The notes under the pieces are model-generated. The model was not told the origin of the DNA. It saw nothing but the letters and a program-made list of their open reading frames with translations, and searched no databases. The position numbers were made by a program, and so were the translations under genes. From a virus (taxonomy: Duplodnaviria > Caudoviricetes), in IMG/VR virus record IMGVR_UViG_3300006029_000081, positions 1 through 25,311 of that record: a stretch of DNA of 25,311 bases. One strand, given 5' to 3'. Of the stretch, positions 16,462 to 21,233 are shown piece after piece. Position 1 is the stretch's first letter; each line of letters begins with the position of its first letter.

Positions 16462-16764
16462 CACCCTAAAAAATTTAATGTTTATGTAGATCCGGGCCAC
16501 GCGTGGCTACGGGTTCCGTTATCAGAATTAAACCGTTTAGCTTTAACGTCTAAAATAAGCTCATATTCTTTTATGAATGGTAAATGGGCTTATCTTGAAG
16601 AGGATCAGGACGCGCCCCTTTATTTGGATCGATTAGAAGAGGACGGCTACAAGCCTTTAATTACTTTTGGTTGTATCAATAGAATAATAAGTAACAATCC
16701 GTCTAAAATTAGAAGTTATTCACATTTTAATTATATTAATATTATCTCTAAGGGGGCGATTTAA
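16459..16764 (+). CDS. Conserved early protein with DPGHxWL...YLEEDxD motif
   Basis: Motif recurrent in phage early regions; SD AAGGA. Confidence 0.8.
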   Translation: MHPKKFNVYVDPGHAWLRVPLSELNRLALTSKISSYSFMNGKWAYLEEDQDAPLYLDRLEEDGYKPLITFGCINRIISNNPSKIRSYSHFNYINIISKGAI

Positions 16765-17486
16765 TGCATAATTCAATAATATATCAAGGCCCCTCTTTAT
16801 TGGACGGCTCGCCCATTGTAGTCATTGCGCTTGCAAAATCTAGCAATAAAAAAACCGGTGATATGGTACAGACTTACATTATCCGGGCGGATATGGACCC
16901 GCTAACCGCTTCAAAGTATGGCCATGATTATGCTATATGCGGTGATTGCAAACACCGGGGCGAATCAGACCCGGACGGCCCCGGGAAGCAAGCTAAAAAA
17001 CGCTCATGTTATGTAACGTTATTTCATGGCCCATTGCAAGTATATAAAAGCTTTAAAAAAGGTAACTATAAACCCGCCGAGGATATAGCAAGCCTTGCAC
17101 GTGGCCGCATGGTTCGCCTAGGCACGTACGGTGATCCCGCAGCGGTTTCCTCGCATATATGGGACGCTTTGCTTAAAGATAGCGCGGGCCATACCGGCTA
17201 CACTCACCAAAATAATGCACCGGGCGCAGATGTTAGGCCCGACCTTACCATGATAAGCGCGGATAGTTTACAAGATGCGCGCATCGCATGGAAAAGCAAG
17301 CGCCGAACCTTTCGCATTATAACGGCGGTAAGTGATAAGCAATCGAATGAGATATTATGCCCCGCATCCGAGGAAGCCGGGCGCAAAGCTCAATGTAATA
17401 CTTGCAAACTTTGCATGGGATCGCATCAAACGGCCCCGAGCATTGCAATAGTGGCCCACGGAAACGGAGCCGCGTACATAAACTAA
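16764..17486 (+). CDS. Cys-rich putative Fe-S/radical-SAM-like enzyme
   Basis: CGDC...SCYV, VRLGTYGDP, GYTH, SADS, CPAS...CNTCKLC, IVAHG. Confidence 0.55.
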   Translation: MHNSIIYQGPSLLDGSPIVVIALAKSSNKKTGDMVQTYIIRADMDPLTASKYGHDYAICGDCKHRGESDPDGPGKQAKKRSCYVTLFHGPLQVYKSFKKGNYKPAEDIASLARGRMVRLGTYGDPAAVSSHIWDALLKDSAGHTGYTHQNNAPGADVRPDLTMISADSLQDARIAWKSKRRTFRIITAVSDKQSNEILCPASEEAGRKAQCNTCKLCMGSHQTAPSIAIVAHGNGAAYIN

Positions 17487-17940: not shown

Positions 17941-18096
17941 ATGATAAAGATTATTATTGACCGCATGCAATATGCGGACCGCTACGACTGGGACAAGCTT
18001 TGCAAAGCTGCGAACGTCCCGATTGACTCAGAGACTATTATGATTGAATGCGAAGCGCATCACATAGGCGCGCGCAAGGGGGTGCATAATGAATAA
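17941..18096 (+). CDS. Hypothetical protein, 51 aa
   Basis: Not in ORF track. MIKIIIDRMQYADRYDWDKLCKAANVPIDSETIMIECEAHHIGARKGVHNE; SD TAAGGA; overlaps recombinase start. Confidence 0.75.
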   Translation: MIKIIIDRMQYADRYDWDKLCKAANVPIDSETIMIECEAHHIGARKGVHNE

Positions 18097-18796
18097 ATAT
18101 GTTACGTACTTACGGGTTTCGACTGATAAGCAAAAGCGCAGCGGCTTAGGTATAGAAGCGCAGCGCGCTATGGTTAACGAGCATATAAAGGCTAATTTTG
18201 GCCAGCTCATTACTGAAGTTATCGAATATGAAAGCGGGCGCAAAGTGGATGCTATAGCGCGCCCAATTTTACATAGAGCTTTGCGGCTTATAAAAGATAA
18301 CCCCGGTGCAAAATTATTGCTAGCGAAAACGGATAGAATTGCGCGGGATCTACACTTTATTAGTGGCCTTTTAAAAGATAATGTCCCCTTAATTGTGGCC
18401 GGCCATGAGCACATGACGAAATTGGAATGGCATATGCACGCGATGATCGCAGAACACGAAGCCGAACAAATAAGCCACCGAACCAAAGCTGCACTGGCAC
18501 AAGCCAAGAGCCGTGGCGTTATTTTGGGAGCGCCAAAAGCATTGCTTCCGCATATCCAGAAAAAAGGCGGTAAATCTACGAAGGCAAAAAGTAAAAGTCA
18601 TCGCGAAAAAATGAAGGATATTTTAATACCATTGATGAAGACCCATATGAAAAAAAATAAGGTTCCTGATTATGAAGCAATAGCGAACCATTTAAATCAT
18701 TTAGGTATTAAAACTTTTAGAGGCATTCCATTTAATAAGGGTGCAGTTTACTATTTAATTAACAGGGAAAATTTAAACAATGAAAAAAAATATTAA
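18089..18796 (+). CDS. Serine recombinase (resolvase/invertase family)
   Basis: YLRVST..Q catalytic Ser motif, ESG, RP.L, AKTDRIAR, IAEHE...IS.RTKAAL; short C-terminal DNA-binding domain. Confidence 0.92.
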   Translation: MNKYVTYLRVSTDKQKRSGLGIEAQRAMVNEHIKANFGQLITEVIEYESGRKVDAIARPILHRALRLIKDNPGAKLLLAKTDRIARDLHFISGLLKDNVPLIVAGHEHMTKLEWHMHAMIAEHEAEQISHRTKAALAQAKSRGVILGAPKALLPHIQKKGGKSTKAKSKSHREKMKDILIPLMKTHMKKNKVPDYEAIANHLNHLGIKTFRGIPFNKGAVYYLINRENLNNEKKY

Positions 18797-19748
18797 AACC
18801 GCAGAAGGCAAACTTACTCCGGATGATATTGCAACCGGAAGTACTATAGCTGCAATCATGAACATGAACCCGTATCAAGATGCCGTGGATATACTTAAAC
18901 GCGCATTTGATGCAACCGAAGGGATACCTAGGCCTGAATTAGATTTTGAAGCCTTGCATTGGGGGACCGCTTTTGAGGTCCCTATATTGCATGAAGCATG
19001 TAATCGTTTAGGTTTAGGTGATCCGAAAACTACATTTAAAAAAGCTTTTTTTTCTGAGCATTATCCTATGGCTGTATCGCTAGATGGTATGGTAGCCGGG
19101 CGGGGTAAAACCTTACAGACTGATTATGAAAAAGGCATTATTGTATACGGTCATGAAGGGATTAAGCTTACAGGCCAAGGTGTCATCGAAGCAAAGCTCA
19201 CAAGCCAAGAGCTTGAGCAAGATTTACCATACTACCGAGGGAGACTGCAGCTACAGATGGCAATGGATATAGTAGATGCTCAATGGGGTGCAGTTGCAGT
19301 ACTACATAAGGGTATCAAGCTTATGATACATGTGTTCCCAAGGGATGTTGATACTATGGCTATGATTAGAGATGCAGCTGTAGACTTTGATAGGCGCGTG
19401 CAAAAATACGTAACCAATCAAGAGACAGAATGGTATGAGTTTAAATCGCCAAAATCTGCAGCAAAAATATATGACAGAGCAACGGATGATGAGATAGATT
19501 TATCTGACATTACTCAGGACATTCAATATATTGTAGAAAATCAAGATCAAATTCATGCATTACAAGAAGAGACTGATCACTTACAAGCTAGAGTTATGGC
19601 TCGCATGGGAGATTATAAACATGCCCGTGCTGGACATTACAAAATTGTTTGGGGTGAAAGGACTTATAAACCAACACCTGAGAAAGTTATTCCAGCAAAG
19701 CCGGGTAACACAATCAGACTATCTAAAATAAAAATCAAGGAGATTTAA
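18780..19748 (+). CDS. YqaJ/lambda-exonuclease family recombination nuclease
   Basis: GS.IAAIM.MNPY, WG..FE, SLDG, IEAK, QLQ..M motifs. Confidence 0.85.
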   Translation: MKKNIKTAEGKLTPDDIATGSTIAAIMNMNPYQDAVDILKRAFDATEGIPRPELDFEALHWGTAFEVPILHEACNRLGLGDPKTTFKKAFFSEHYPMAVSLDGMVAGRGKTLQTDYEKGIIVYGHEGIKLTGQGVIEAKLTSQELEQDLPYYRGRLQLQMAMDIVDAQWGAVAVLHKGIKLMIHVFPRDVDTMAMIRDAAVDFDRRVQKYVTNQETEWYEFKSPKSAAKIYDRATDDEIDLSDITQDIQYIVENQDQIHALQEETDHLQARVMARMGDYKHARAGHYKIVWGERTYKPTPEKVIPAKPGNTIRLSKIKIKEI

Positions 19749-19749
19749 T

Positions 19750-20211
19750 ATGGAAAACGAAACAATGACTAAGACAATAGCCGAGGCATTTGTAAAGGCT
19801 CAAATGGATTTTGAAAAGACTGGATTGGATAGTACCAACCCACATTTTAGAAATGACTATGCAAGCCTTGCTGCATGTATTGGTGCAGTAAAAGATGCGC
19901 TCAATGAAAATGGCATATCATTAATACAAAAGACGCATGAGTGCGACACTGGCGTAAAAGTAGAGACTATATTTTTGCATGAGTCTGGGCAGACTATGTC
20001 CGGAGGTATATTAAAATTACCTGCTGAAGCAGAAACTCCACAAAAGTATGGGTCAGCTCTTACGTACGCCCGTAGATACTCATTGCTAGCTGCTTGTGGT
20101 ATACCGCCAGAAAGTGAACTAGATGATGATGCTGAAATTATAAGAAAAAAAGAAGAGAAACCTCAACAAAAAAAAGTAACGAGGACTCCTCCACCAGCAA
20201 AAAAGCTATAA
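19750..20211 (+). CDS. erf: ERF-family ssDNA annealing protein
   Basis: NPHFRNDYASL, GSALTYARRYSL...GI...DDD signature. Confidence 0.92.
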   Translation: MENETMTKTIAEAFVKAQMDFEKTGLDSTNPHFRNDYASLAACIGAVKDALNENGISLIQKTHECDTGVKVETIFLHESGQTMSGGILKLPAEAETPQKYGSALTYARRYSLLAACGIPPESELDDDAEIIRKKEEKPQQKKVTRTPPPAKKL

Positions 20212-20468
20212 GCCTTAGTATCCCCAACAAGGATTCTAAGGCATGCAAAGATGAGGCTGATTTCTTTAAATCTTTCAAAGAGCTAGTAGAAAAAGTTAAA
20301 GCTACTGATCTTAGTTCTTTGGAAAAGGCAAAAAAAATACAGTCTTTATATAAAGTCAATAAGGATACCATTGATAAGACACAACAACCCATGCAACTGG
20401 ACTTTAAATATTTGTGGGATTCATTTTTAAAAGAACAACCAATGGAGGTAACTACTAATGTTAAATGA
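20199..20468 (+). CDS. -1 frameshift extension of ERF (87 aa)
   Basis: A_AAA_AAG at 20199-20205, hairpin 20212-20242, -1 frame open to TGA at 20466-20468 with no usable own start. Confidence 0.75.
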   Translation, partial: KKAISLSIPNKDSKACKDEADFFKSFKELVEKVKATDLSSLEKAKKIQSLYKVNKDTIDKTQQPMQLDFKYLWDSFLKEQPMEVTTNVK

Positions 20469-20748
20469 TTCGAATCATATATACGACCGTTCATCTGACC
20501 TTGAGTTACATAATGAAAGAAACCTAGGTCTTGACATGAGCGTAGTATCTTTATTGCAGTCAGTACTTTATCAGGCAATGCATGATGCTATTAAATTAAA
20601 AAAATCTAATCCATACAAGATCGAAGCTACTCAATGGTTATGTGATGAAGATGACAGAATGTTACAACTCTGTCTTCAGTGTGTTAATATAGATTATTAC
20701 AAAATCATTAGGAAAGTAGCAAAGGACGGATGGAACCTCAGTTTGTAG
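20458..20748 (+). CDS. Hypothetical protein
   Basis: 96 aa, SD GGAGG; L..VL.QA..DA...EA.QWL pattern. Confidence 0.8.
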   Translation: MLNDSNHIYDRSSDLELHNERNLGLDMSVVSLLQSVLYQAMHDAIKLKKSNPYKIEATQWLCDEDDRMLQLCLQCVNIDYYKIIRKVAKDGWNLSL

Positions 20749-20900
20749 TAGTTGATGAGTACGGTGAAAGCCTTCGTGCATTTTATACACGAGAATCTGC
20801 GGAGGCTTTTGTCAAATTAAGGCCAGAATGTAAAATAAATGAACCACATGTTATGTCGCCAGAAGAATTTGATGAGTTATTTGGAGACCCACCGTTCTGA
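20730..20900 (+). CDS. Hypothetical protein, 56 aa
   Basis: Not in ORF track. MEPQFVVVDEYGESLRAFYTRESAEAFV...FGDPPF; SD AAGGA. Confidence 0.7.
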   Translation: MEPQFVVVDEYGESLRAFYTRESAEAFVKLRPECKINEPHVMSPEEFDELFGDPPF

Positions 20901-20999
20901 GCTGTCACAAAGCTCACCATGCAACTTTAATTATAATCTGATAGTAACCCCTCAACTAGATAAAGAACGTGCGACAGAGGCTTCTGTGTGAGGTCGTTT

Positions 21000-21233
21000 T
21001 TAGTGTACTGACTTAGGTTTTGGTTCAACGAGATATAAATCTGCACCTTCGCAGTGAATGAGTAAATAATCATCTTCTTTTTCAGAAAATAATATTTTAA
21101 TCATAGATTGTGTATTATCTTCTAGTAATTCTATATTCCAAATATTCTTACCCACGACTTTATCTAAAGCTTCTGCTTGTTTTTCATCAGCTTCAGAAAT
21201 AAAATCTACATTTATACTATCTTCTTTATCCAT
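21000..21233 (-). CDS. Hypothetical acidic protein
   Basis: 77 aa, overlaps the phosphoesterase end. Confidence 0.75.
   Translation of the reverse strand: MDKEDSINVDFISEADEKQAEALDKVVGKNIWNIELLEDNTQSMIKILFSEKEDDYLLIHCEGADLYLVEPKPKSVH

Follow-up and report, generated by a model that had tools for sequence, protein, structure and literature searches.

The window analysed here (the whole stretch of DNA, 25,311 nucleotides) is a linear virus fragment of 25 kb, whose terminase is 87.6% identical to that of the Methylophilales (OM43) phage MEP301 (MW452941.1). The two also have in common the gene order resolvase-yqaJ-erf, and because of these likenesses to MEP301 the host of the window phage is likely to be OM43-like. 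The Resolvase-domain protein (PF00239) is encoded at 18089–18796 and corresponds to ORF4 of MEP301, and at 16764–17486 lies a gene for a 240-aa protein with a weak match to DUF7227 and a strong one to phrog_2554, a family of unknown function. The region around erf contains the following features.

18780..19748, plus strand: gene for a YqaJ/RecE-like exonuclease, partner of erf on its upstream side (PF09588, E 1.3e-6; phrog_434, E 1.1e-24)
19750..20211, plus strand: zero-frame ORF of erf, 153 aa (short form), Erf annealing domain and Lys/Pro-rich linker (PF04404, E 4.6e-19; phrog_2324, E 1.7e-40)
20145–20151 and 20169–20175, plus strand: two further in-frame A_AAA_AAA heptamers, leading into the same open -1 frame
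20181..20185, plus strand: SD-like GAGGA, 13 nt 5' of the shift site (anti-SD duplex of -5.9 kcal/mol, top 5% of the gene)
20199..20205, plus strand: slippery heptamer A_AAA_AAG (third base of Ala150, Lys151, Lys152), in slippery phase and conserved as A_AAA_AAR
20206..20211, plus strand: spacer of 6 nt, the length seen in split forms, with the zero-frame stop TAA (20209–20211) inside it
20205..20468, plus strand: -1 frame ORF of 87 codons, the ERF C-terminal domain (stop 20466–20468; frame open from 20136)
20212..20242, plus strand: 3' hairpin of 11 bp with one internal mismatch (-15.2 kcal/mol, z -3.99, 0/200 shuffles)
20458..20748, plus strand: next gene, 96 aa, without family match; the -1 ORF runs past its start

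The erf product scores 69.3 bits against PF04404, for which the curated cut-off is 25, matches PHROG 2324 and 155, and by profile matches residues 12–133 of Gp77 in PDB 9Y6U (E 2.7e-17). An exonuclease gene next door is expected of an Erf-family annealase, and here yqaJ ends 1 nt before erf. YqaJ homologues were found on 207 fetched loci, both those in which the C-terminal domain of ERF is in the -1 frame (split) and those in which it is in frame (fused), and homologues of the gene at 20458..20748 on 62, MEP301 among them.

The 3' end of erf reads GCA AAA AAG CTA TAA, and a first-pass annotation had proposed that a programmed -1 frameshift at this point gives two forms of the annealase. All of its coordinates (the end of erf, the in-phase heptamer, the spacer and the hairpin) were reproduced, as was its description of a -1 frame open for 87 codons, with a first ATG at 20391 and an overlap with the ATG of the next gene at 20458. 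A TTG in the middle of the domain, at 20319, precedes that first ATG. The predicted shifted product has 152 + 87 = 239 aa. The check for an indel that had been advised was made on Logan contigs rather than raw reads, and those of runs X10–X15, none of them flagged as a possible source of the record, had no indel at the site. The split layout of the window is shared by contigs of six other runs and by the genome of the cultured isolate MEP301, whose erf has the same heptamer and spacer and a -1 ORF of 82 codons. In the MEP301 record a 133-aa ERF is annotated, followed by a gap of 404 nt (L018 3055–3460) that contains this ORF unannotated; the main text of the MEP301 paper (PMC8024684), the part covered here, makes no mention of ERF or frameshifting. 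One RNA run (X20) gave a contig covering 19632–19898 only, which ends before the shift site, and another (X24) gave no coverage. A search of Rfam with positions 19500–21200 returned 0 matches. Among GTDB genomes, 1 locus was obtained out of 61 candidates (L300), a 3.5-kb contig from a Flavobacteriaceae MAG that bears a split erf and its heptamer; this contig is probably mis-binned phage DNA and of no use for host assignment.

The -1 ORF of the window can be aligned, in the same register, with the C-termini that fused ERFs encode in frame and, by this alignment, is the normal C-terminal domain of the family, carried in frame by other relatives. Because some C-terminal extension is nearly always encoded in frame in more distant ERFs, it is the 153-aa form that is unusual. 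Over 67 distinct split genes, pattern-selected ones included (first 16 columns skipped; pairs with pS of 0.05–0.55), dN/dS in the domain had a median of 0.229 and was below 1 in 143 of 146 pairs; 23 disjoint split pairs gave a pN/pS of 0.30, and fused pairs a dN/dS of 0.228. ATG, GTG and TTG are absent at the start of the domain in 28 of the 29 distinct split junctions described below. Judged from these comparisons, the startless -1 ORF is under purifying selection, and a selected alternative-frame product without a start of its own is what dnaX/IS3-type frameshifting involves. An AlphaFold2 model of the domain consists of a beta-hairpin and four helices arranged as a helical bundle (mean pLDDT 85.8). 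The domain had no Pfam match above the cut-off, no PHROG match, no usable match in the ESM Atlas and, by sequence, no match in the PDB below E 0.08; a fold search with VIA-align was uninformative, the best hits (Z up to 8.0) being unrelated helical proteins. Prediction of a complex between the domain and the YqaJ exonuclease scored 0.00, which speaks neither for nor against their pairing.

Several observations concern the joint between core and domain. The protein P0001 is a 237-aa in-frame ERF whose junction resembles the shifted product of the L106/L012 type; known as a protein record only, it would be either a natural one-base insertion or an error. Record 8 of run X15 matches the window up to the last base of the heptamer and then has 358 unlike bases before rejoining (window 20205–20581), and the synonymous distances of core and domain are strongly discordant in several pairs (L010/L086, L011/L088, L070/L072). 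From such sequence comparisons, C-terminal domains seem to be exchanged at the shift site.

Relatives were fetched by protein similarity and, for 68 loci, by a DNA pattern containing the heptamer, a selection that is biased. Out of 220 sequences, repeats of the same contig included, 214 had an ERF match; in 142 of these the C-terminal domain was also matched, and in 72 it was not. Among the 142 two-part loci, repeats and the 68 pattern-selected loci included, 117 carry the domain in the -1 frame, 25 carry it in frame and none in +1. The 81 protein-selected loci provide 29 distinct split and 8 distinct fused junctions, and A_AAA_AAR is found in phase and at the same place in every one of them (29/29 and 8/8), although the junctions are related and are not independent trials, so that these counts overstate the number of independent events. 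Other Lys-Lys pairs form A_AAA_AAR in 11 of 59 cases, and codon usage predicts 22%; the first A of the heptamer is kept across six different preceding codons (GCA, ATA, ACA, GTA, CCA and TCA). The in-phase heptamer is, by these measures, conserved beyond what the protein needs, as in -1 frameshifting of the dnaX/IS3 type. Protein databases give the same picture: among the best 120 of 8000 matches to a fused homologue, 64 of 65 short ERFs finish with KK followed by 0, 1 or 3 further residues, and in each of the 55 long ones KK precedes the same C-terminal domain. Since A_AAA_AAG occurs 30 times in the 25-kb record, counting both strands, the heptamer alone is not rare, and the case against chance rests on its conservation. 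The two A_AAA_AAA heptamers further upstream are possible minor shift sites that are not conserved family-wide; with the -1 frame already open from 20136 on, a slip at either of them would likewise lead into the C-terminal domain. In L177, L200 and L216 the zero-frame stop directly follows the heptamer, like the reversed dnaX described in passages of a review (PMC5009743).

The window hairpin begins 6 nt 3' of the heptamer, as had been claimed, and gives the most stable 40-nt segment of erf. In most split lineages a structure begins at the same distance, but its kind differs by lineage. The L033 group has another hairpin, of about -14 to -16 kcal/mol, and the group of L005, L007, L042, L102 and L110 has an H-type pseudoknot that starts at the position of the hairpin. 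In 21 sequences (18 split and 3 fused), 97% of the cells of the pseudoknot are paired, and 3 of its 11 pairs have changed on both sides (7 cells), values that were reached in 0/500 shuffles for cells changed on both sides and in 16/500 for pairs, in a test that is generous, since the structure had been derived from these very sequences, which are related, with three of the group (L089, L173 and L185), two of them without stem 2, left out. By folding, the stimulator is weak or absent in the split L013, L018 (MEP301, where the predicted structure is weaker than the window hairpin), L167 and L196, and among fused lineages it ranks in the top 10% in just 1 of 8. The stem-loop or pseudoknot 5–8 nt downstream that is typical of dnaX/IS3-type sites is present, if weak in L013, L018 and most fused lineages. 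A terminator scan flagged the hairpin at 20212–20242 on neither strand; on the minus strand, 20199–20242 reads as a hairpin with a T6 run 6 nt on, loosely terminator-like in look.

A 5' SD-like stimulator, where dnaX/IS3-type frameshifting has one, lies about 10–13 nt upstream of the slippery site and is optional in IS elements. The GAGGA of the window is indeed present 13 nt upstream, where the first-pass annotation had counted it among the signals. As a required part it is not upheld, and its conservation is partial: the element is in the top 10% of its own gene's background in 12 of the 29 split junctions (median percentile 0.17), and in the relatives L003 and L004, which are 94% identical to the window ERF, an 18-nt insertion displaces it. 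The GAGG of the window can also pair with a CCTC just 3' of it. On sequence grounds the SD-like element would be an optional modulator at best. The dnaX/IS3-type signal set that had been taken as established is present as regards the heptamer, the 3' structure and the startless selected ORF, but not consistently as regards this element. Likewise, the conservation that was to be looked for in homologous erf genes extends to the heptamer and the -1 ORF (dN/dS about 0.23–0.30), but not to the hairpin, because the stimulator varies by lineage.

The first-pass annotation had also held that homologues fused in frame without the signals would speak against frameshifting. Fused homologues do exist, but they keep the heptamer, followed by a -1 stop within 2–8 codons (17 in L044), and one lineage keeps the pseudoknot too, so that they extend the frameshift idea. 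In that lineage (L047, L048, L050 and L104) an intact pseudoknot follows a spacer of 7 nt, and two codons of the -1 frame precede its stop. Among 80 loci, 60 belong to a freshwater clade of fused genes and have the full junction; the heptamer is present in 60/60 and the -1 stop comes three codons on (two in L277). Across the 44 distinct genes of the clade, the six codons from heptamer to stop have zero third-position changes, the median for such stretches being 21; this value is tied lowest, in 2 of 209 stretches (one other also has zero), in a clade in which 24% of third positions never change. Inside the same six codons there are 14 first- and second-position changes. The stop itself alternates between TAA (35) and TAG (9), and two other -1 stops are likewise kept in 44/44 genes. 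Neither this clade nor L036, L044 and L045 has a strong predicted structure.

Split and fused states are clustered on the trees. The ERF-core tree requires 5 changes between them, of which at least 3 are forced by strong branches, and a quick tree of the domain requires 3, with 1 forced. As ERF cores and C-terminal domains appear, from their sequences, to have been exchanged between lineages, the number of polarity flips is uncertain. These patterns suggest that the cassette likely works in both polarities, extending a short ERF in split genes and truncating a full-length one in their fused relatives, and we lean towards the view that erf is a two-polarity isoform system. The freshwater ERFs of L052–L074, which have a different C-terminal domain, carry A_AAA_AAR in the linker with a -1 stop 5–6 codons later in 11 of 15 distinct tails, with no strong structure by folding; wider use of a truncating shift is possible from these heptamers.

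Other explanations of the split genes make different use of the same sequences. The break in the frame adjoins a homopolymer and P0001 reads as the shifted product in frame, both of which would suit an assembly error or the tail of a dead pseudogene; the chance of this is practically nil, refuted as it is by conservation in six other runs, an isolate genome and 29 distinct junctions, and by dN/dS well below 1. In transcriptional slippage, RNA polymerase would insert an extra A into the run, and the resulting mRNA, read normally, would give the long form, with a precedent in Thermus dnaX (PMC5009743, in part). In its favour are the A run at the site itself and the two others upstream in erf. 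However, with 6 A in 20 and 7 A in 9 of the 29 split junctions, every run falls short of the run of about 9 A or T of the Thermus dnaX type, the review in its relevant passages citing 9 for efficient slippage, and both the codon phase and the spacing of 6–7 nt to the structure fit a ribosome, so that slippage by the polymerase is very improbable. Hardly credible is an arrangement of two separate genes, with translation of the domain by itself restarting at a weak initiation codon that overlaps the stop of erf. In the -1 frame, the codon across that stop is ATA in the window and, in many relatives, CTG, either of which would be a weak and non-standard start; but it is TTA or CTA in other lineages, and re-initiation leaves unexplained the invariant heptamer, its spacing and its presence in fused genes.

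It is also conceivable, if unlikely, that only the long form matters, in which case the split would be a 1-nt lesion of old date that slippage rescues, and the heptamer of fused genes a relic or a constraint of the protein. That other ERFs nearly always have an in-frame C-terminal extension, that most fused lineages are without a strong stimulator and that the two states cluster on the trees would all agree with this. Yet reversion would take one base, and split genes persist across ERFs that are 49–100% identical; the fused genes of the L047 type retain a whole pseudoknot together with a -1 stop two codons on, and the synonymous positions of the fused freshwater clade are frozen locally, at the site.

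Programmed -1 frameshifting at the conserved A_AAA_AAR and its 3' RNA structure, yielding proteins of 153 and 239 aa, is on this evidence very probably what takes place in erf, and it is, as the first-pass annotation had supposed, the best reading of the heptamer, the stimulators spaced by 6 nt, the selection on a startless ORF and the register of the fused homologues. By analogy with dnaX and IS3, the ribosome would pause at the stem and the tandem tRNA-Lys would slip by -1 on the two Lys codons; the share of ribosomes that slip would produce the 239-aa protein with its C-terminal domain, and the rest the 153-aa annealing-domain protein. In fused relatives, ribosomes slipping by -1 on this heptamer would run into the nearby stop and yield the short form, and selection would keep the two-form output rather than one polarity. 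Because the passages of the Atkins review that treat polarity reversal tie it to frameshift efficiencies near 50% (PMC5009743), the long form may be abundant and need not be the sub-stoichiometric one that the first-pass annotation had supposed.

By its match to residues 12–133 of Gp77, the short form holds the full ring-forming domain, and by likeness to Gp77 and to P22 Erf the window ERF would form rings and anneal ssDNA. In the parts of the sources used here, residues 1–125 of Gp77 from SECphi27 form a 24-mer ring with a flexible, peripheral helical C-terminal domain (PMC13017515), and exonuclease and SSB are among the partners bound by the C-terminal domains of annealases (PMC9512822, PMC11783212). 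Since the short form is a ring domain and such C-terminal domains bind partners, we infer mixed rings, and we put at about even the chance that both ERF forms co-assemble in one ring, with the shift rate setting the number of subunits that bear a partner-binding domain; exonuclease, SSB or replication partners would be the candidates for binding. Taken as a whole, the comparisons incline us, with some reserve, to a model in which marine and freshwater OM43-type phages would set the make-up of their annealase rings by recoding. One slippery site would give a short and a long ERF in every lineage, by extension or by truncation. Changes of single bases in the spacer would reverse the polarity, and the stimulator would have been rebuilt several times; the rate of shifting would be an evolvable dial for the partner-binding domains on a Rad52-superfamily ring, and the shift site would double as a swap point for C-terminal domains.

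If this is true, programmed frameshifting in phages is not confined to virion and assembly proteins but includes a recombination enzyme, and the short ERFs of this abundant group in the databases (65 of the best 120 matches) miss an unannotated domain. It would also provide a natural system for testing why C-terminal domains are needed on just part of the subunits of an annealase ring, which bears on Red-beta/RecT recombineering and on defence systems that sense such rings, among them RAZR, which binds the ring of the Erf-like Gp77 (PMC13017515, in part). The loci would then form a natural set of A_AAA_AAR cassettes that differ in stimulator and include both polarities; they could be tried out in E. 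coli reporters as well as in the cultured MEP301-OM43 phage-host pair. The frameshift mechanism is already known, as is polarity reversal in dnaX; in Erf annealases we found no description of it. The literature listings and open-access passages covered yielded no frameshifting for Erf-type or other annealases, and no recoded annealase appears in the main texts of PMC8024684, PMC10885494, PMC2896510, PMC3711429 and PMC11783212 or in the first 300,000 characters of that of PMC5009743.

IS3-family -1 cassettes use the same class of heptamer with a stem-loop or pseudoknot to fuse an upstream ORF to a downstream one. The erf cassette is like them in its heptamer class, in its stem-loop or pseudoknot and in joining two ORFs; unlike them, the locus is without transposase or IS ends, and the downstream part is a helical domain of 80 aa that is not catalytic. 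The review of PMC5009743, in the passages used here, notes SD stimulators in IS elements, presents ribosomal slippage at paired Lys codons as established for the -1 frameshift of E. coli dnaX (tau/gamma), and reports a reversed-polarity dnaX as proposed for Chlorobium phaeobacteroides. Both dnaX and erf have an A_AAA_AAG site, a 3' structure and an optional 5' SD-like element, and in both the two products differ by a C-terminal domain and the polarity is reversible by one nucleotide. Unlike dnaX, erf is a phage annealase of the Rad52 superfamily, has both polarities among close relatives, and has a stimulator that switches between unrelated hairpins and an H-type pseudoknot. The known phage frameshifts, in the lambda G/GT tail chaperones and the capsid and tail extensions of T7, T3 and A2 (PMC5009743 and PMC10885494, each in part), also make a short protein and a C-terminally extended one from a phage gene, but their products are virion or assembly proteins whereas erf encodes an annealase. 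P22 Erf and Gp77 (9Y6U; PMC13017515, in part), and Red-beta by analogy (PMC9512822, in part), have a ring-forming N-domain, a helical C-domain and an adjacent exonuclease, as would the window ERF if, as its profile match suggests, it forms a ring; in these annealases, as the same portions of the sources describe them, the C-terminal domain is in frame on every subunit, unlike in the erf of the window.
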